36,447 nt of DNA from a virus (IMGVR_UViG_3300005976_000005:1-36447), one strand, 5' to 3'; numbered from the stretch's first letter, positions 1 to 35,303 are shown. Numbers and translations: made by a program. Notes: generated by a model from the sequence alone, not told the origin.

Positions 1-287
1 GTAATTAATCCTTTAATTCTTTTAATAAAGTTACCTTTACCACCAAAGATAACCTTATCTTTTTTAATCAAACCTTTAGCTTTATTAACCGCTACTTTAA
101 TTATGGATGCATCAAGCATCCCTATATTGTTCATTTTCTCTTTAACAATCTTTTCAATATCGCTTAACTTAGCTTTAGGATTTTCCTTAAATCTATTATA
201 CGAAAATCTAATTACATTATTAAATTGCCTAATGTAATCTTCGTTAATGTTTATTTGATTTTGTATTTTAAATTTATAGGTTATCAT
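1..287 (-). CDS. tnpB: TnpB-like nuclease, 5' part (truncated by window edge); second copy with no upstream tnpA
   Basis: ATG at 287 reads MITYKFKIQNQININEDYIRQFNNVIRFSYNRF...IKVAVNKAKGLIKKDKVIFGGKGNFIKRIKGLIT, paralogous to 7731-9068; nt 1-103 identical to 8785-8887. Confidence 0.85.
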   Translation of the reverse strand, partial: MITYKFKIQNQININEDYIRQFNNVIRFSYNRFKENPKAKLSDIEKIVKEKMNNIGMLDASIIKVAVNKAKGLIKKDKVIFGGKGNFIKRIKGLI

Positions 288-2776: not shown

Positions 2777-3362
2777 TCAAATCCAATGATTTTCCCATTC
2801 CTGAAGATTTTTGAATGGAGAATAGTACTTCTTACCTTCTAAAACAAGATGCCATTTATCCCAACCAGCCAAATTTTCTGGGTACCATCCAAATTCTTTG
2901 GCTAAATCTTCGGCTTTGTCCTCTGGCATTCCTTCCAATATATATTTGACCTTGAAAGCACCATAGTAAGGCTGAATGTTATTTCTGATACAGATATCAA
3001 AACCGTGCTCAAGAATATCCCAAACCTTATCAAAGTCTACTTCTCCATTCAAATAAATGTTGTAAAGTCTACTATTATGGATAAAGTTGTGACATGAGTG
3101 ACAAAGAGCAACTATTTCCTTAAGTTCTACCGTTCCCGTATTCCAATCAATGTCATAATCCTCATGTGCTTCTAACCATTTATGATAATAAGCACTTCTT
3201 TTAGGGACACCACAAGCCCAACATTTATATCCATGGGTTGCGTATGCTTCTTTTCTTTTGATATTCCACCAGTCCTTTCCAAGGATTGATCTTGGATTGA
3301 CTGTGTGAAGTGGCTTAGGAATGTTTGGTGCTGATAAAATTTCTGGTCTCCAAAAACTCATT
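2777..3362 (-). CDS. HNH endonuclease-like protein
   Basis: CWAC...LEAHE...LCHSCHNFIH Zn/HNH pattern; likely start MSFWRPE. Confidence 0.75.
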
Positions 3363-3363
3363 T

Positions 3364-3528
3364 TCAATCCTTGATGTAAACTTTGTACCAACCATTTTCA
3401 AGAGTATCGATTTTTGAAATTTCATATTCGAAGTCTTTTGCTTCTTGTGGGTTGTCAAGAATAATAAATTGCTTGCTGCTGCTACATGATAGTATCAGTA
3501 GCAAAATTATCATTATGATTTTCTTCAT
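3364..3528 (-). CDS. small lipoprotein, 54 aa
   Basis: Hand-translated MKKIIMIILLLILSC-SSSKQFIILDNP...; basic N-terminus, hydrophobic core, lipobox-like ILSC. Confidence 0.6.
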   Translation of the reverse strand: MKKIIMIILLLILSCSSSKQFIILDNPQEAKDFEYEISKIDTLENGWYKVYIKD

Positions 3529-7730: not shown

Positions 7731-9068
7731 TTATGTACAAATATGCAACATGATGTTGCTATTGTGAGAAAATAACCTAAAAGAATTTCCAAAGAATTTA
7801 TCTTTGGAAAAAAGAAACCTATAACTGGATTTAGATTTCTTAAAAACATTATATAGTTCTATCCATGATTTAATATTGTTTGATTTATTCTTTAGTGTTT
7901 TCTTCCAATGATCATCTAAAGAACCAATATTAAATTTTGGGAAAACTATATCTTGTTTTGGTATTGATTTTTCTTTATATATTTTATTAAATAAATATCC
8001 TCTTCTTGATAGTTCAATTGACGCACCAACAGAATCTATATCATCAGGATTATTAATTTGTCCTATAAAAGATGAATATTGGGGTGCAACCTCTTGATAC
8101 TTTATGTTCTCTATATTACATCTTTTAATTAAATTTTGTATGAACGGTTGTCTTAACCAATTATTGTTTACTAATCTGTTAAACCTTTTACCTTTTTTAT
8201 GATTTTTACTTTTCATGTTTAACTTCTCAAAACATACAAGATCACAATTATAATGTTTAACAAGATTGATAATGTATTTTGAAACATTAAAAACTTCATG
8301 TCTTCTTTTATTGTTTACCTTAATTTTCTTTTTATCAGTTGAAGGCAACATGTCGTTTAATTCTTTAAAAGAAATAATTTCCTTATGAATAACTTCTTTA
8401 TTGTCTTGATCTCTCCAATCAATTATGGATAACCCAATATAGTTTGGATTCAAATCAAATGACAAAATACGATCATTAATTACTTTACGTTCCCCTTGTT
8501 TTATTAAATTCTCATCTATAACAATCCAAACATAATCATTGTTTATCTCTATTGAAAAACAACCTTTATTCTCTTCGGACAATATCTGCACCTTACTTAA
8601 GATTGACTTTTGATTCTTGTTCATTCTTGGTAACTGAACATTTATATGTGTCTGTTTATTTAACTTTAATAATATTGAATTATCTTCTATAATTCTTAAT
8701 TCAGATTTTCTATTACCTTTATTATCTGATTTAGAACCTCTTAACATTAGAGGAAAATTCCTTAAATCTTTCCATTCATCTTTAGTAATTAATCCTTTAA
8801 TTCTTTTAATAAAGTTACCTTTACCACCAAAGATAACCTTATCTTTTTTAATCAAACCTTTAGCTTTATTAACCGCTACTTTAATTAAAGAACTATCAAG
8901 AAACTTTATATTGTTCATCCTTGACTTAACCAACTTCTCAACATCAGACAAAGATAATTTAGTGTCCTCTTGAAATCTATTATATGAAAACCTAATCACG
9001 TTATTAAACTCCCTAACGTAATCATCAATATCTATTTTATTCATTATCTTGAATTTATAGGTTATCAT
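7731..9068 (-). CDS. tnpB: TnpB-like RNA-guided nuclease (RuvC), no canonical Zn ribbon
   Basis: RuvC-I SFDLNP, RuvC-II FEKL, YSSFIG, RuvC-III DSVGASIELSRRG; downstream of IS607 tnpA. Confidence 0.85.
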   Translation of the reverse strand: MITYKFKIMNKIDIDDYVREFNNVIRFSYNRFQEDTKLSLSDVEKLVKSRMNNIKFLDSSLIKVAVNKAKGLIKKDKVIFGGKGNFIKRIKGLITKDEWKDLRNFPLMLRGSKSDNKGNRKSELRIIEDNSILLKLNKQTHINVQLPRMNKNQKSILSKVQILSEENKGCFSIEINNDYVWIVIDENLIKQGERKVINDRILSFDLNPNYIGLSIIDWRDQDNKEVIHKEIISFKELNDMLPSTDKKKIKVNNKRRHEVFNVSKYIINLVKHYNCDLVCFEKLNMKSKNHKKGKRFNRLVNNNWLRQPFIQNLIKRCNIENIKYQEVAPQYSSFIGQINNPDDIDSVGASIELSRRGYLFNKIYKEKSIPKQDIVFPKFNIGSLDDHWKKTLKNKSNNIKSWIELYNVFKKSKSSYRFLFSKDKFFGNSFRLFSHNSNIMLHICT

Positions 9069-11011: not shown

Positions 11012-11557
11012 TCATACGTGTGTTTCAATCATCTTTCTTATTTTAGCAACAAGTATCTTTTGTTCTTTGTTGAGAGGTCTTCCACTATCCTCTAATGAGT
11101 CCAATATGAACTTGGTTTTGGGGGCATACTTTCTTACAAATTTTGGACTTGCTGTTGGAAAGTCAGAAACATTATTCAATCTGTCAGAAAGCTTTATTGT
11201 CAATCCATCACTAGACATAACAGCCATCTTTTTTGCTATGTATTCTGACTTCTTTTCACCACTATCTACACTTGGTGGATTTGTAAGTTCATCAACAAGG
11301 CTGGCAATCTTACTTCCAAACAAATCCTTGATCTCACTAAGTGGTGTATCAGTATCTTCCACAACATCGTGAAGCCACGCAGCAGCAATCATTTCCGGAG
11401 TCCCGCCGTGTTCATTGACAATATCAGCAACACTTGCTGGATGGTTGATGTATGGCTCTCCACTGAACTTACGTGTAACACCTTTATGTTTCTCAGTGGC
11501 ATACTCTTTTGCTTTTTCTATAAGGTCTTTTCCGTTTACAAAATCTCCAAAGCCCAT
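11012..11557 (-). CDS. HD-domain (p)ppGpp hydrolase, small alarmone hydrolase / Mesh1-like
   Basis: H..TRK.SGEPYINHP, AAWLHDVVEDT, IKLSDRLNN motifs. Confidence 0.88.
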   Translation of the reverse strand: MGFGDFVNGKDLIEKAKEYATEKHKGVTRKFSGEPYINHPASVADIVNEHGGTPEMIAAAWLHDVVEDTDTPLSEIKDLFGSKIASLVDELTNPPSVDSGEKKSEYIAKKMAVMSSDGLTIKLSDRLNNVSDFPTASPKFVRKYAPKTKFILDSLEDSGRPLNKEQKILVAKIRKMIETHV

Positions 11558-11721
11558 TTTAATAATCTCCTGTTATACATTTCTTTCTCAATTTTGTCCA
11601 GTAACTCGGGACTCGAAGTTGAGATACAATGATCTAAAAATTTATGATGCTTGTTATTTGTTCGATGAACTTATTTGTATGTTGTCATTTTCTATCACCT
11701 CCGAAGAGTATTCCAACAACT

Positions 11722-29610: not shown

Positions 29611-29639
29611 TTGACAAGACTCCCGGAATATGTTATAAT
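29611..29639 (+). promoter_or_regulatory. perfect consensus sigma70 promoter
   Basis: TTGACA-17nt-TATAAT with extended -10 TG; followed by GGAGACTC/GAGTCTCC hairpin. Confidence 0.8.
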
Positions 29640-29692: not shown

Positions 29693-29926
29693 ATGGTAAG
29701 ACTTATTCAGTCAATCTTTACATGGTGTAAAGTCAACTTCATATCAATTATATTCTCAATCTGGATGTTCTGGGTCACAGCAAACATTATCCTAATACAG
29801 ATGAGACTGAATGGATTTGAGAAGGACATTGGATACATTTCAAAGTCCATTATCATTATACTGAATTCAATAGGATTCGATATACCATTAGAGATGGTCG
29901 ATGATGGTTCAGATAGCACATGTTGA
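29693..29926 (+). CDS. putative membrane protein
   Basis: Downstream of consensus promoter, AGGAG RBS, hydrophobic segment. Confidence 0.55.
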   Translation: MVRLIQSIFTWCKVNFISIIFSIWMFWVTANIILIQMRLNGFEKDIGYISKSIIIILNSIGFDIPLEMVDDGSDSTC

Positions 29927-30033
29927 CTTGAGAGAAATGTGGGTTGACTTGAGAGAAATGTGGGTTGACTTGAGAGAAATGTGGGTTGACTTGAGAGAAA
30001 TGTGGGTTGACTTGAGAGAAATGTGGGTTGACT
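29922..30033. repeat. 21-bp tandem repeat, 5 copies plus partial (iteron-like)
   Basis: Unit GTTGACTTGAGAGAAATGTGG at 29922, 29943, 29964, 29985, 30006. Confidence 0.95.
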
Positions 30034-30190
30034 AAGAAGAGAATGGAGACTGTCAAATAAGAAATGACAATTTGGAAACCTGGATGGATAATCCGAGTGT
30101 GGGTTGACTAAAAGGCAAATAAAAGGTTGACTTTATATATTAGGTTGACTGGAGGAGGACTTTTTATTATATAATACAGTGGTCCTATCA

Positions 30191-30330
30191 GAGTCTACCT
30201 AGTCTACCTAGTCCACCGAGTCCACCGAGTCTACCTAGTCCACCAAGTCCACCAAGTCCACCAAGTCCACCGAGTCTACCTAGTCCACCGAGTCCACCAA
30301 GTCCACCAAGTCCACCGAGTCTACCTAGTC
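30191..30330. repeat. 9-bp degenerate tandem repeat, ~15 copies
   Basis: (G/T/A)AGTC(C/T)ACC units. Confidence 0.95.
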
Positions 30331-31033
30331 TTGCTGAGAGTCTACCAAGTCCTCTCTGTTCTGTGTGTGTTCTGTGTGTGTTCTGTGTATGTTTCGTAGT
30401 CATCCCATGTACACAGCAAGAGGGACGGTAGGCCCTATTTCTCATATGTTATTATCTTATTAGTAAGTGGTGGATAAATCGTGGGTAACTTTCTTTTATT
30501 TTAAGAACTTAGTTAAAATATGTTTTATACTGGAATCTCAATCAAATAAGTGTTTTGACAGATGAAAGAAAGAATCGTATTAGGATATCTATGTATATGG
30601 ATGTTGGTAAATACATTGACAATCTTGTTTCCTGGGATTTCTACTACAAAACATTTGGTATTTTTTTTTGATACTCGTTACTTTCATGTTATGGGGGGGT
30701 TTCACAAGGGATGATTATCTTTACTTTCTGGAGTTCGGGAGTCTCGATGGATTGGATATAAGCATTATGTGCCTTTGTGGATGGACTTACTTGAGGAAAG
30801 GAATAACATATCAAGTGATCTATTTTGATGGAAGAGTACTTGATTGAATTGGAGTTTGGTGAAGAATGGGAAGGTGGATTTAATTTTGTTGTTGAATCAA
30901 GTAATGATGTTTTTTGGCTCATTGGCATATGTTAAGGTTAGCATGGATTGACGAAAGAAATTTGGAAAGTGATCTTGAAAAGGCAAGATTACGTTTTGAG
31001 AAATATCTTTGTGAACTTGAAGAGGGGAATGAA

Positions 31034-31226
31034 ATGGAAGTAATCTATAAGTTCGAATTGAGTTTGTGTGATTATCAGTTTGTAAGTATGCCTATTGGTT
31101 CACGTATTCTTTGCGTTAAGGAACAGAATGGTGCTATGTGATTGTGATGCTGAATACGAACAAAGGAATGTAGGAATATATGGTATTGGTCATCGGCGGA
31201 CATTTAAAGGAGAAGATATGGAATGA
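31034..31226 (+). pseudogene. degraded small phage gene (MEVIYKFEL...MPIGSRILCV.../RNVGIYGIGH)
   Basis: In-frame TGA stops plus a frame change. Confidence 0.4.
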
Positions 31227-31495
31227 TAAGGTGGAAAATCTTTAGAAACAAGAAAGAATGTAGTGATGAAAAACTACACAGCAGTTCCTCGTTTATAAGA
31301 AAGATGGATGTCTTGGCTAAGAAATTATATCATGAAGAGATGTTTGACGGTTCTGAGATGTTGGATAGTATATGGGAATGTTTACTTGATGGAATGGAGT
31401 TTAGTGATACAATAACAACGGAGAATATTCTGTATAATGAAGTGTATTGTTTACAAACCAGAATACTAATAAAGAATGATGAGATGGATAATTGA
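31223..31495 (+). CDS. MIxWK-family small protein
   Basis: MIRWKIF...KMDVLAKK. Confidence 0.75.
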   Translation: MIRWKIFRNKKECSDEKLHSSSSFIRKMDVLAKKLYHEEMFDGSEMLDSIWECLLDGMEFSDTITTENILYNEVYCLQTRILIKNDEMDN

Positions 31496-31676
31496 CAAGA
31501 GGTTTTTAGGTAGAGGCTTTTATGAATTGGAATATATGATTATGGAAGAGATGGATATTCTATTGAAAAAAGAGAAGATGGAAAGAACCAAATTAGATAA
31601 TGAAACATTCTATTACTCATTTGAAGAGTATGCTTACTATAATGAGTTCGGAAGTCTCGATGGATTTTCTGTATGA
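31476..31676 (+). CDS. MIxWK-family small protein
   Basis: MMRWII...EMDILLKK. Confidence 0.75.
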   Translation: MMRWIIDKRFLGRGFYELEYMIMEEMDILLKKEKMERTKLDNETFYYSFEEYAYYNEFGSLDGFSV

Positions 31677-31840
31677 AGTACTGGAAAGCTAATAAACATC
31701 TTTACGGAATAGGAAGGGAAAGTATAGATAACTTGTTGTCGCATATGGACATAATGGTAATTAAGGAAATGTTTCCTGAAGATGACTTTGAAAGGATATC
31801 TGATTGGGTCGAAGAAAAAGAAGAAAGGAATAAACTATGA
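31673..31840 (+). CDS. MIxWK-family small protein, 55 aa
   Basis: Hand-translated MKYWKA...HMDIMVIK; ATGA overlaps at both ends. Confidence 0.7.
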   Translation: MKYWKANKHLYGIGRESIDNLLSHMDIMVIKEMFPEDDFERISDWVEEKEERNKL

Positions 31841-32210
31841 AGTCCTGGATTGTAAGAAAGAATATGAATTATCCGATAATATTATAGAAAGTCTGATAGA
31901 AATTGAATTGTTGAAACTTGAATATGGTCTGGCAGGAGAAGATCATAATGATGGTTAAGTGACAGGCATCGAGGCAATTTTTTTAAGATTTCATTGCTTG
32001 GAATGTATTTGTGGAACTACCAAAGATGGTAGTATTGTTAAGATTGGTAATATCGTGTAATCAATTCAAAAATAGACAGTTACATAGAAACATTGATGGA
32101 CGTTTTGAAAATGAAAAAGTTCATGGAAAAGATATACGAGGCAAAGTGGACAACAGTTGACAAAGCAGAGATAACAGCAGTCTTCGAAGCAATGGTTGAC
32201 ATGTGGTAAT
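31837..32210 (+). pseudogene. two or more degraded MIxWK-family copies
   Basis: MKSWIVRK (frameshift in A-run); MVK-TGA at 31951; LMDVLKMKK remnant near 32095. Confidence 0.55.
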
Positions 32211-32214
32211 TAAT

Positions 32215-32433
32215 ATGGTAAAATGGTGTAGAGCGAAAAGAGTTTCGAAACATATGGAGAATTATATGTTATTCTCTTGTCGGGAGGTAATAGATTCCGA
32301 AATGGACTTGATGAAAAAGAAAGAAATATATATGAGACATCCTGATTTAAGTCTCTCTGATTTTTCCGCATGGGTCGAAACTATAGAAAAATACGATGAG
32401 TGTGTTATCGATGACAGGAGGTACTACCCATGA
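32215..32433 (+). CDS. MIxWK-family small protein
   Basis: MVKWCR...EMDLMKKK. Confidence 0.72.
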   Translation: MVKWCRAKRVSKHMENYMLFSCREVIDSEMDLMKKKEIYMRHPDLSLSDFSAWVETIEKYDECVIDDRRYYP

Positions 32434-32633
32434 TTAGGTGGAAATTTCATAAGGATTTCATGAAAATTGACAACTACAATATTCTCATGGATGCTTACAA
32501 ATCGAAAAAACAAATAAGAAGAAGAATGTGTTTAATATACAACGACGTTGACCTTAATAGTTTCAAACTTATTGTTGTAAATTCTTGTGATGATTACCTT
32601 TATAATCTGGAGAACTTGGATGATTATGTGTAA
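32430..32633 (+). CDS. MIxWK-family small protein
   Basis: MIRWKFH...LMDAYKSKK. Confidence 0.75.
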   Translation: MIRWKFHKDFMKIDNYNILMDAYKSKKQIRRRMCLIYNDVDLNSFKLIVVNSCDDYLYNLENLDDYV

Positions 32634-32835
32634 AATAGACAAGATAGGTAATCAAAACAATCATAACAAATTGACTCTTGACAACAAGTACATGTGGATT
32701 TACTATCCAGACGAAATTGATATAATTTTTGATATTTTAAAAGTACGTTGCGTCTTTGAGGAAATTGGAGGATTACTTGTTTGTGGAAAATTCTATAACA
32801 TATTTGAAGAATATATTGAGGATGTTGAAAAATGA
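32626..32835 (+). CDS. divergent array member
   Basis: MCKIDK...IFDILKVR; coupled to neighbours. Confidence 0.6.
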   Translation: MCKIDKIGNQNNHNKLTLDNKYMWIYYPDEIDIIFDILKVRCVFEEIGGLLVCGKFYNIFEEYIEDVEK

Positions 32836-32972
32836 TTAGATGGAAGATAGAGAAACTGATGATTGTTAATAAGGCAAAGAGGCACAAGAAAGAGATTGAC
32901 AAATGGATTGGTATACGGACTGACGTATTGAAGTCTAAAAAGTATAGAGAGAGAGTCAGAGAAGAAATATGA
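32832..32972 (+). CDS. MIxWK-family small protein, 46 aa (possibly frameshift-truncated)
   Basis: Hand-translated MIRWKIEK...RTDVLKSKK. Confidence 0.65.
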   Translation: MIRWKIEKLMIVNKAKRHKKEIDKWIGIRTDVLKSKKYRERVREEI

Positions 32973-33008
32973 TGAGTTGGGAAGAGTGGCTTGAATGGAG
33001 TTTGGTGA

Positions 33009-33263
33009 ATGATTAGGTGGAAACTTTGTAAAATTTTGAAAATTGAAGGTGAATCATTACATTCTATCGTGGAACTTTCTGCTCATACCGACGTATTATT
33101 AAAACTTGATCTCATTGAGCAAAATGTAAACATTATCTTCAAGCAATGGGTTGACGAAAGAAAATGTGAAGGTGAAACATGTACTCCTAGAGATATAAAG
33201 GATTTCATTGAAATTGTTAAAATGGAAAAAGAATGTTATTTGGAGAAATTGGAAAATGATTAA
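33009..33263 (+). CDS. MIxWK-family small protein
   Basis: MIRWKLC...HTDVLLK. Confidence 0.75.
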   Translation: MIRWKLCKILKIEGESLHSIVELSAHTDVLLKLDLIEQNVNIIFKQWVDERKCEGETCTPRDIKDFIEIVKMEKECYLEKLEND

Positions 33264-33453
33264 GTGGAAAATTTATAAAAGCGAAGGACATGATAGTCTA
33301 TATAACTTTGATATCAAGCCTTCTCACCTTACAGATGTATTACTTGTAGGAAACATAGTTGACTTTACAGACATGTTTTTCACTGTTGATGGACTTGGTA
33401 TATGTAATGGTTGGAATGACTTTATTAGTAAAATGGAGGATATGAATGATTAA
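33256..33453 (+). CDS. MIxWK-family small protein
   Basis: MIKWKIY...LTDVLL. Confidence 0.75.
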   Translation: MIKWKIYKSEGHDSLYNFDIKPSHLTDVLLVGNIVDFTDMFFTVDGLGICNGWNDFISKMEDMND

Positions 33454-33664
33454 GTGGAGAGTTTACAGAACGACAAAGAATATAGATAGAGCAGTCAGAA
33501 ACCTAATGGATATTTACAACTGGAAACTGGCTGTTAAGTTTATTGAGAAGAAGTCATTGAAGGAAGATTATAGGGATAGTGAAGCTAATTGGAAGAGATG
33601 GTACAGTGAGAAACTTGACAATATGGAATCAACTGAAGTCTTCACTATAGATAGAAGAAGGTAG
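33446..33664 (+). CDS. MIxWK-family small protein
   Basis: MIKWRVY...LMDIYNWK. Confidence 0.75.
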   Translation: MIKWRVYRTTKNIDRAVRNLMDIYNWKLAVKFIEKKSLKEDYRDSEANWKRWYSEKLDNMESTEVFTIDRRR

Positions 33665-33694
33665 TTTGACTAATCAAAAGGAAAATGTTATATT

Positions 33695-33937
33695 ATGATA
33701 AGATGGGAATTTAAGAAACAGGGTCTTGTTTGGAATTCTAAGATAGAATATAATGATTCACCTTCAATCTCGTACAAATCAAGAAGAGGACCTTTATGTA
33801 ATACATTAATGGAAAGACACCGCAATGAATTGGAAAAGAATATTGTACTTAATAGAGTAATGGATGTTCTTGTTCACAAATCAATTTTAGAAACAAGATA
33901 TGGTACACACACAACAAGGGAGCTGCTTGACATATGA
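33695..33937 (+). CDS. MIxWK-family small protein
   Basis: MIRWEFK...VMDVLVHK. Confidence 0.75.
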   Translation: MIRWEFKKQGLVWNSKIEYNDSPSISYKSRRGPLCNTLMERHRNELEKNIVLNRVMDVLVHKSILETRYGTHTTRELLDI

Positions 33938-34176
33938 TGTACTATAGAGCCGATAAAACGGATGGATTTTTCTATGAGGGATATCAAGGATACACTTTTA
34001 TGGCTATTACTGATGATTTAGAACTTATAGATGAAGGAGCCTGTACAAGAGAAGGTCCAAACAGTCTAAAGCTAAGTGCTATGACAGACGCAGTTTTATT
34101 TCAACAAGTATTCGGATACAAATGGTGGGTAGAAGATGAAGAGAGAATGGAAGATAATAAAGCCCAAACAATATAA
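33934..34176 (+). CDS. hypothetical protein within the array (not clearly family)
   Basis: MMYYRADK...MTDAVL; ATGA overlap. Confidence 0.6.
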   Translation: MMYYRADKTDGFFYEGYQGYTFMAITDDLELIDEGACTREGPNSLKLSAMTDAVLFQQVFGYKWWVEDEERMEDNKAQTI

Positions 34177-34372
34177 TGGATATATTACACGTCTTGAATT
34201 TAAGATTGATTATATTGGGAAAGTCACGGAAGTTATGACATCATATAACTCTGCTGATTTCAACAAGTATATTGATATCATGATGGATGAATTACTTTTC
34301 AGAGAGAAGATAATAAAGCCATCTGGTAAAAGAAGATTAGAAATTTATGAGGAGTTTATAAATCATGATTAA
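34136..34372 (+). CDS. MIxWK-family small protein
   Basis: MKREWKII...MMDELLFREK. Confidence 0.7.
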   Translation: MKREWKIIKPKQYNGYITRLEFKIDYIGKVTEVMTSYNSADFNKYIDIMMDELLFREKIIKPSGKRRLEIYEEFINHD

Positions 34373-34577
34373 ATGGTCAATGAGGTTAAGGTCAATAGAT
34401 GAATGGCACGGAGTGGATGATTTAGAACATTATGCATTCCATGATAGTGAAGTTAAGAAAATTAAGGAAATGCTAATGGATGCTGTCAAGATGAAGAACA
34501 TTGAAGATAAATTAAGTCCATGTGACAAGTGGTTTTTTACAGGTATAAAAAATATGTACTGGAGTGAAGATGATTGA
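34365..34577 (+). CDS. MIxWK-family small protein
   Basis: MIKWSM...LMDAVKMK. Confidence 0.75.
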   Translation: MIKWSMRLRSIDEWHGVDDLEHYAFHDSEVKKIKEMLMDAVKMKNIEDKLSPCDKWFFTGIKNMYWSEDD

Positions 34578-34791
34578 GTGGAAAGTATATAAACAAACGG
34601 TGGTTCCATCACTTGCTAGCTTAAATGATTATTTTGACTCAATGAAGATGCTTAGAACAATAAAGAATTCAGAAAATCGTTTAGGGTATGTTACAGTTGG
34701 ATATATAGAAGACATAAGCAGAATATTCATATTAGGAAGTTCATCAAATAAAAGATATCTTGACCTTCTTGAGGACGGTAAAGTTGATTAA
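34570..34791 (+). CDS. MIxWK-family small protein
   Basis: MIEWKVY...FDSMKMLR. Confidence 0.72.
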   Translation: MIEWKVYKQTVVPSLASLNDYFDSMKMLRTIKNSENRLGYVTVGYIEDISRIFILGSSSNKRYLDLLEDGKVD

Positions 34792-35014
34792 CTGGAAACT
34801 GAAAAAGCTATTTGATTTTGGGAAGACTCAGGACTTCTTCTTTTGTTATACTGATATAGTGAGAATGATTAAGGAAATAAAATTGACGACTTCACTTGGA
34901 AGATGTTTTATAACAATAGAGGACAGTAAGAGTGGTAAAAGATACACCATAAGTTCTGTAGAAGAATACCTCAATATGTTAGAGGATGGAATTAATGATA
35001 AAATGGAACTATGA
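34784..35014 (+). CDS. MIxWK-family small protein (TTG start)
   Basis: MINWKLK...YTDIVRMIK; C-terminus resembles the previous gene. Confidence 0.7.
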   Translation: MINWKLKKLFDFGKTQDFFFCYTDIVRMIKEIKLTTSLGRCFITIEDSKSGKRYTISSVEEYLNMLEDGINDKMEL

Positions 35015-35303
35015 ACAGATAGACCTCTGGACATATTCCTTTGAAATCAAGGACGAGTATGGCAATTCCATCTACCGTATACATCTTCCAGTCACCTTCC
35101 TTACAAATAATTTTTCTACATGCTTCAAAGTCTCCGTCATTCTTATTCAGGACGAACTTCTGACCTTCTTCTTCACTTACTGCCATTGGTATGAATTTGT
35201 CCTGAAGATTAGACTTCACAAAGAGTACAATCTCATTGTCGTTACAAACTCACAAGAAGTCAATATAAGAAGTATTATAGAATTCGGTTTGAACTCTGAA
35301 TAG
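34995..35303 (+). CDS. MIxWK-family small protein, last in array
   Basis: MIKWNY...IQDELL. Confidence 0.65.
   Translation: MIKWNYEQIDLWTYSFEIKDEYGNSIYRIHLPVTFLTNNFSTCFKVSVILIQDELLTFFFTYCHWYEFVLKIRLHKEYNLIVVTNSQEVNIRSIIEFGLNSE

Follow-up and report, generated by a model that had tools for sequence, protein, structure and literature searches.

A translationally coupled array of small MIKW-family genes in a T4-like phage contig and its turnover by recombination at coding junctions

Poxviruses possess "genomic accordions", in which copy number changes by recombination, and African swine fever virus carries the terminal tandem paralog families MGF110 and MGF360, which are gained and lost between strains and are thought to act on host defences. 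In the hyperplastic regions of T4-type phages, Arbiol and colleagues are said to have described promoter-early stem-loop (PeSL) cassettes in 2010. Proteins loaded into the T4 head carry a capsid targeting sequence (CTS) that is cleaved at a hydrophobic-x-Glu site. The internal proteins (IPs) of T-even phages are unrelated proteins that share only this sequence (PMC3012670). T4 amplifies tifA in tandem via 6–10-bp microhomologies (Srikant et al. 2022, PMC9391042), and the jumbo phages G and 121Q carry tandem arrays of more than 30 similar genes, which were read as tandem duplication (Hua et al. 2017, PMC5646251). Here we describe a tandem array of small genes, referred to as the MIKW family, in the first 36.4 kb (36,447 nucleotides; hereafter the window) of a 149,281-bp T4-like virus contig (IMGVR_UViG_3300005976_000005).

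The array lies on the plus strand at approximately 30.5–35.3 kb. Re-annotation resolved it into 18 open small open reading frames (ORFs) and about seven decayed copies, with members of 45–100 amino acids. Nearly all copies start with M-(I/V)-(R/K/Y)-W-(K/R)-hydrophobic-x-(K/R). All 17 starts listed in the original prediction were recovered at their positions (17/17), and the start motif is more frequent here than chance allows: 55 ORFs of at least 40 amino acids starting with M-x-x-W were counted genome-wide, and 16 of them lie within 30914–35303, where 1.6 were expected on the basis that this 4.4-kb region makes up 2.9% of the 149-kb contig (binomial P = 3e-12).

Alignments of 15 and then 42 members revealed three shared elements. 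These are the N-terminal octapeptide, which is by far the most conserved; (M/T)D(V/I/L)(L/M), which marks a helix start and whose Asp is invariant across the 42-sequence alignment; and a C-terminal (Y/F/W)(L/I)xxLE(F/Y)G(D/E). Trp4 and the C-terminal Glu were each conserved in at least 90% of the 42 sequences, and the divergence of the segments between the elements was near random. Among 87 non-redundant members, position 8 was Lys or Arg in 65 and position 6 was hydrophobic in 75; Trp4 belonged to the selection rule for this set, so that its frequency there is not independent. The N-terminal tag and the internal Asp motif had already been predicted, and both held in the alignments; the C-terminal motif and the basic residue at position 8 had been overlooked.

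Homology outside the octapeptide was examined with the aid of a second contig, L001 (CAZOXV010000010.1), which is 15.6 kb long, shows 76–96% DNA identity to the window and was reached via a near-identical protein variant. A profile was constructed from 16 L001 cassettes without a window ortholog, residues 1–8 were removed, and 200 composition-preserving shuffles were scored per member. The trimmed window members gave a mean z of 4.9, and the real score was unmatched by any shuffle in 9 of 15 cases. A leave-one-out analysis within the window pointed in the same direction, with a median rank of 8 among approximately 2,230 six-frame peptides. Because the three elements are shared while the intervening parts diverge, the array members are paralogs built on a single small alpha/beta scaffold rather than unrelated cargo with a common tag. 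An AlphaFold2 model of the member at 33256, based on the 42-sequence alignment, had a predicted local distance difference test (pLDDT) score of 75 and a predicted template modelling (pTM) score of 0.55, and contained a strand at residues 4–7, a helix at 22–37, a hairpin at 41–50 and a helix at 53–63.

Whether the members belong to a described family had been raised as a check on the original prediction, and they were placed in none by the Pfam, PHROGs, PDB and fold searches. A PHROGs search with 30 members and neighbours gave no family at a meaningful E-value; a Pfam search with 42 members gave only single weak matches, a different family each; and the family profile had no match among PDB sequences. 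Foldseek against PDB and BFVD, together with VIA-align against 48,161 chains, gave a best Z of 3.5 and no credible fold match, and the ESM Atlas yielded no usable match by features. The ribbon-helix-helix (RHH) fold was considered on account of the basic N-terminal strand with helices after it; in RHH proteins two helices directly follow the strand. No RHH family was present among the Pfam matches of the 42 members, no structural match exceeded Z 3.5, and a spacer of 13–60 residues separates the N-terminal strand from the MD helix.

The array compares with the known systems as follows. Like the arrays of phages G and 121Q, it strings numerous small paralogs head to tail within the genome of a large phage, and arrays of this kind are read as products of tandem duplication. 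Those arrays have no sequence relation to MIKW. Moreover, MIKW copies are less than 25% identical yet keep the octapeptide and two anchor residues, their junctions overlap, and breakpoints could be mapped. The likeness to dmd-tifA of T4 (61.5/61.4) lies in small early genes by replication genes and in copy number that shifts at microhomologies of a few bases. However, TifA and Dmd show no homology to MIKW, and amplification of tifA produces fresh identical repeats, whereas MIKW arrays are of long standing and have diversified; the T4 genes have an established part in counter-defence, whereas the MIKW proteins may be presumed to have one. With the T-even IP loci, the array shares a hypervariable cluster of small proteins with a conserved N-terminus in a T4-type phage. 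Nevertheless, the IPs are unrelated proteins with a cleavable CTS ending in hydrophobic-x-Glu, whereas MIKW members are homologous throughout and do not have that site. As in PeSL cassettes, short conserved sequences between small early genes serve as recombination handles for modular shuffling; the PeSL handle is an intergenic promoter plus stem-loop, whereas the MIKW handle is a coding junction, usually without intergenic space. Most MIKW junctions overlap by 4 or 8 nt, in place of the individual early promoter and stem-loop of each PeSL cassette. MGF110/360 and MIKW are both tandem, fast-turnover families, but they belong to different virus realms and encode unrelated proteins, and the comparison is an analogy only. 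The features found are those of a tandem multigene family, namely one-strand head-to-tail paralogs whose copy number varies (approximately 18 open in the window, at least 35 in L001 and at least 20 in a distant relative, L004), and not those of PeSL-type cassettes or, as regards the leader and the homologous bodies, of capsid cargo. Tandem arrays of small genes have thus been published before; the MIKW family itself is undescribed, and its junction mechanism is well resolved.

The consensus start ATGAT(T/A)AR contains TGA at bases 2–4 and TAA, TAG or TGA at bases 6–8, which corresponds to a stop in each of the other frames. In 30 of the 50 junctions in the window and L001, the upstream gene stops no more than 8 nt into its successor, with a four-nt ATGA overlap in 16 and an eight-nt overlap in 14; the stop-in-start forms were ATGA or ATGATTAA/AG/GA. 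In addition, the acidic C-terminal tail is encoded by purines, and those at −14 to −8 double as a Shine-Dalgarno-like element. These results indicate that the array is translationally coupled. Because the start holds stops for both other frames, a cassette joined in either of these frames would end inside the next start and stay coupled.

The original prediction had suggested birth-and-death turnover, with the conserved start as a recombination point, and the comparison with L001 bore out both suggestions. L001 carries at least 35 members in 8 kb, compared with approximately 18 open in the window, and holds intact versions of the dead copies of the window as well as several blocks of extra cassettes. 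Among six insertions or deletions (indels) between the two, the crossover lay in the start motif in three, in the C-terminal CTGGAG in one, at a chance 13-nt microhomology in one (the gene was killed) and at no homology in one; the breakpoints of four of the six thus fall in the conserved junction of about 15 nt. Orphan start stubs without bodies occur at 30866 in the window and at approximately 1334 and 4406 in L001. Logan contigs from microbial-mat metagenomes of other studies contained at least two arrangements, one of them like that of L001. It is apparent that recombination at the conserved junction adds and removes cassettes. The ratio of nonsynonymous to synonymous substitution (dN/dS) between window and L001 orthologs was 0.65 in the array (range 0.12–1.49) and 0.21 in 11 flanking genes; the array proteins evolve faster than the flanks. 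L001 is filed in a metagenome-assembled genome (MAG) of an "uncultured Methanosarcinales archaeon" despite its 76–96% identity to a T4-like phage, and this placement is probably a binning artefact, not a host assignment.

A profile search of 1.84 billion proteins returned five matches, all of them the window's own proteins or near-identical variants (two variants). The idea of a lineage-restricted orphan family was nevertheless rejected. Paralogs score only 10–20 bits, far below the library threshold, and are invisible to very large protein searches; a DNA-pattern search was therefore used, in which two consensus starts one gene apart were sought and the matches were then scored with the family profile. 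Five lineages besides that of the window proved to carry true arrays. One is L004, which is distantly related, shares the right flank and has at least 20 members, the last of them orthologous to that of the window. A second comprises L032, L072 and L080, whose 8 members bear signs of recent duplication, and a third is L045, with 7 members; L002, L003, L008 and L009 form the fourth, and L082 the fifth. With the window's own, the family spans at least six phage lineages. In L002, L003 and L008, the array comes directly after a gp41-like helicase gene, gp32 and a primase-like gene without a Pfam match, and it overlaps the stop of this last gene; the 61.x genes take the corresponding place in T4. 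T4 keeps dmd and tifA in this slot (PMC9391042). Only three window members have recognizable orthologs in L004 or L045, namely those at 33446 and 33695 (~31% identity) and the N-terminal part of that at 34995 (70%). The right side of the array is accordingly old and conserved, whereas turnover on the left side is fast.

Other searches contributed no further loci. Neither tblastn with one L004 member nor blastn with the array gave a match among 50,697 phage records, and a related-locus search of viral and metagenome contigs with P0004 as the query gave none. Of the metagenome pattern matches, ~70/80 contained no family member, many of them came from one sample, and they were treated as noise or another repeat. 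In sample Ga0307489, approximately 40 short contigs matched the two-start pattern, several on both strands, without any MIKW-family ORF, and these are probably an unrelated repeat. Two further pattern scans of viral contigs gave one empty match (L084) and one ORF pair with unrelated bodies (L085). The latter, at 11180–11621 (plus strand) of a 55-kb IMG/VR contig, comprises two tandem ORFs of 73–75 amino acids with MIKWK and MIKWR starts and a ATGATTAA overlap; the bodies (…CSDEDF…CPEAV…) are not of the MIKW family (profile score below 5 bits), and the likeness of the starts reflects either chance or convergence.

We estimate a probability of roughly 0.55 for the following explanation. The array is a head-to-tail coupled family that grows and shrinks by recombination between short conserved junctions, each of which runs from the end motif of one gene through the ribosome-binding purines to the ATGAT(T/A)ARRTGGA start of its neighbour. 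It would be transcribed with early or middle genes, and its products would form a diversifying set of binders directed at host targets within the infected cell, in counter-defence or host takeover, without being loaded into the head by a T4-type CTS. Several observations weigh against this explanation. About 7 of the 25 window copies are dead, so many copies may be dispensable. The dN/dS of 0.65 is compatible with relaxed constraint as much as with diversifying selection. A second member modelled with AlphaFold2 (pLDDT 61, poor) showed the same helix-hairpin-helix order with the N-terminal octapeptide as coil; since the two models disagree on the octapeptide, it could be either a core strand or a free docking peptide. 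Finally, the last array members of L003 and L082 consist of a MIKW module fused to fragments of a T4-type major capsid protein, which suggests some link to capsid biology beyond this explanation.

A largely neutral origin, in which selection at the nucleic acid level keeps the junction for recombination and coupling and the array is mainly a dispensable by-product of duplication with few functional members, seems unlikely. It would fit the position of four of six indel breakpoints, the orphan stubs, the stops embedded in the start, the decayed copies and the dN/dS of 0.65, and Hua et al. read the phage G and 121Q arrays simply as duplication (PMC5646251). However, codon usage over 41 starts indicated otherwise. 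The codons at Lys8 were AAA (16), AAG (16) and AGA (5), and those at Arg3 were AGA (9) and AGG (8); position 6 of the tag keeps only its middle T, and the first two bases of the codons carried much information and the third little. Because third codon positions are free while the amino acids at positions 3, 6 and 8 are conserved, selection acts on the N-terminal peptide and not on the DNA. This table was used in place of a comparison of dN/dS in the first 8 codons with that in the remainder, which was set aside as uninformative (0.86 vs 0.64 on only 45 synonymous sites). Furthermore, Trp4, the Asp and the C-terminal Glu persist in at least six lineages among copies less than 25% identical, some members have a dN/dS of 0.12–0.32, and orthologs of ~31% identity stand in the same order in distant relatives.

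It is also doubtful that the octapeptide and the Asp and Glu anchors dock all members on one host or phage machine, such as a protease, chaperone, ribosome or polymerase, with the variable part picking clients or blocking sites, or that the octapeptide is a degradation or regulatory signal. The conservation of the octapeptide beside variable surfaces, its lack of structure in one model and the ability of the module to bear extra C-terminal sequence, as in the capsid fragments of L003 and L082, are in line with such an adaptor. On the other hand, the better model makes residues 4–7 a strand of the fold.

The capsid fusions are the basis of a further, improbable reading, in which the MIKW module would be a portable N-terminal scaffold that presents short variable peptides early in infection, including fragments of the phage's own capsid, so that the array would supply decoys or inhibitors of host sensors for conserved phage proteins and the stop-embedding junction would have evolved as a device by which shuffled cassettes keep their translational coupling. 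The fusions, with Pfam Gp23 matches, are located at 349–669 and 45–353 of L003 and at 93–449 of L082 (minus strand), and they matched positions 4–49 (E = 9e-13 and 2.7e-11) and 132–195 (E = 1.2e-12) of the Gp23 profile. The modules of L003 and L082 are only ~25% identical to each other. In L082, no further Gp23-like sequence follows the fusion; the ORF stops and the next frame was read as a RuvC-like start. The L003 contig ends ~40 bases past the second capsid fragment. The region that binds Gol and EF-Tu lies in the N-terminal part of gp23 (PMC3014915), and profile positions 4–49 would correspond to the most conserved N-terminal region of gp23, which holds this stretch. The idea that the module is a diverged gp23 propeptide found no sequence support: alignment of the family with the first 100 residues of gp23 of Pantoea phage Phynn gave an hhalign probability of 0.3%, and the pairwise score of the L082 fusion against gp23 was carried by its capsid-like part.

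The original prediction had likened the locus to T4 internal proteins, with a capsid-targeting tag on unrelated cargo, and this analogy was not supported. In its favour are the T4-like nature of the phage, the hypervariability that the array shares with T-even internal-protein loci (PMC3012670) and the position of the L003 and L082 modules before major capsid protein fragments, where a gp23 propeptide would be. However, the bodies are homologous, and [LIVMF]-x-E within residues 6–14 occurs in only 4 of the 87 non-redundant members. Pattern matching found no TATAAATA late-promoter motif on either strand at 30–36 kb; genome-wide, 28 minus-strand copies were counted, mostly at 77–144 kb. Outside the window, many minus-strand genes at 74349–86173 of the genome (C1) start with a separate T4-like leader, M-x-x-(F/Y/L)-x-x-(F/Y)-L-x-E (for example, MKEYKKYLQE, MSNYERFLGE, MSRFTKFLEE, MAFNEYLKE, MSFRDFVRE and MAFVEVLSE), which gives this phage another candidate signal for capsid targeting. 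Together with the 0.3% profile comparison and the coupling of the array to replication genes in another lineage, these results make it very unlikely that the MI(R/K)WK peptide loads the proteins into proheads for injection in the manner of T4 IPI–III, and the MIKW proteins are probably not capsid-loaded cargo.

The array had been predicted to span 31223–35303; the starts listed there were confirmed, but its left edge lies further out, near 30513. All of the following features are on the plus strand. The first two array members survive as frameshifted relics at 30513–30932, with L001 orthologs at 158–394 and 585–746, and a five-codon start stub, MGRWI-stop, lies in this region at 30866–30883. 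An atypical ORF of 75 amino acids at 30914–31141 has a TTG start (LAHWH...), a weak family match and no L001 ortholog. The idea that members contain pieces of other genes of this phage was dropped, as blastp against the six-frame genome matched only the array's own relics. The member at 31223–31495 (90 amino acids, MIRWK) is orthologous to L001 919–1140 (68% amino acid identity). It is followed by members at 31476–31676 (66 amino acids, MMRWI) and 31673–31840 (55 amino acids, MKYWK); in the comparison with L001, a one-cassette indel has its crossover at the start of the latter. At 31837–31958 lies a dead chimera: a 1.3-kb deletion at the 13-nt microhomology fused the MKSWIVRK start, in the wrong frame, to a C-terminal segment from a different cassette. 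The copy at 31951–32206, predicted as MVK(TGA), is present but is not an open member: it is a pseudogene in which the Trp4 codon has become a TGA stop and frameshifts have accumulated, and its L001 ortholog (3154–3408) is intact (84 amino acids).

The subsequent members are those at 32215–32433 (72 amino acids, MVKWC); 32430–32633 (67 amino acids, MIRWK), in whose C-terminus two L001 cassettes have recombined within CTGGAG; 32620–32835 (71 amino acids, MIMCK, with Trp4 replaced by Cys); and 32832–33016 (46 amino acids, MIRWK), which is truncated by a frameshift, starts at a crossover point and has its lost C-terminal piece in a 15-codon ORF at 32969–33016. Next come 33009–33263 (84 amino acids, MIRWK); the modelled member at 33256–33453 (65 amino acids, MIKWK); 33446–33664 (72 amino acids, MIKWR), whose start is a crossover point and which has distant orthologs in L004 and L045; and 33695–33937 (80 amino acids, MIRWE), whose dN/dS (0.12) is the lowest and which is distantly orthologous to a member of L045. 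The divergent member at 33934–34176 (80 amino acids, MMYYRADK) has Tyr at position 4, retains Lys8 and MTDAVL and was not recovered by the profile alone. The member at 34136–34372 (78 amino acids, MKREWK) has a one-residue insertion before the Trp and is followed by those at 34365–34577 (70 amino acids, MIKWS), 34570–34791 (73 amino acids, MIEWK) and 34784–35014 (76 amino acids, TTG start, (M)INWK). The last member, at 34995–35303, is truncated. Its first 27 codons (MIKWNYEQ...) belong to the family as predicted, but the sequence beyond 35076, after a 728-bp deletion relative to L001, is unrelated.

The nearest strong plus-strand promoter upstream of the array is a candidate at 29611–29639 with a perfect sigma-70-type match (TTGACA-17-TATAAT with TG), and no terminator-like site was found on the plus strand between it and the array. 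Promoter-like sites were not enriched (36 vs 31.1 expected), and of two terminator-like hairpins found, none lies inside the array. The sequencing runs listed as containing this region included no RNA run. Promoter-like sites with an extended −10 at 32196–32224 (TTGACA-17-TAAAAT) and 33666–33694 (TTGACT-17-TATATT) are conserved in L001; they sit at two of the few non-overlapping junctions, and their −10 sequences reach up to or into the next ATG. Immediately upstream of the array, 29856–30445 contains six 21-mers (TGGGTTGACTTGAGAGAAATG) with further solo GGTTGACT copies, as well as approximately 25 nine-mers AGTCCACCR/AGTCTACCT (= GGTGGACT on the other strand). Judged by their sequence, these repeats look like iterons or regulator sites.

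The source contig was estimated by CheckV to be 58% complete, and no match to Peptidase_S77 or Gp23 was found on it. Its products include RtcB, a DNA methylase and a UvrD-like helicase, along with two tRNAs. The closest isolated phage shows no better than 36% identity, over the helicase. Nearly all genes of the contig are on the minus strand; the 30.5–35.3-kb region is a plus-strand block with a strongly positive guanine-cytosine (GC) skew and is preceded by tandem repeats at 29.9–30.35 kb. In addition, a 289-bp stretch at the contig start (window 1–287) is 82% identical to 8785–9068, the 3′ part of a minus-strand ORF at 7731–9068, which represents paralogous gene ends.

Among the many small early genes of large phages that have no assigned function, tandem paralog arrays usually receive only passing mention. 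The MIKW array is unusually tractable in this respect, since it combines a clear signature (Trp4, Lys8, Asp and Glu), occurrence in several lineages, mapped breakpoints, and old and young parts. It provides a worked example of junction-mediated cassette exchange within coding sequence. It also shows, for annotation, that in a T4-like phage a common N-terminus alone does not amount to a capsid-targeting signal.

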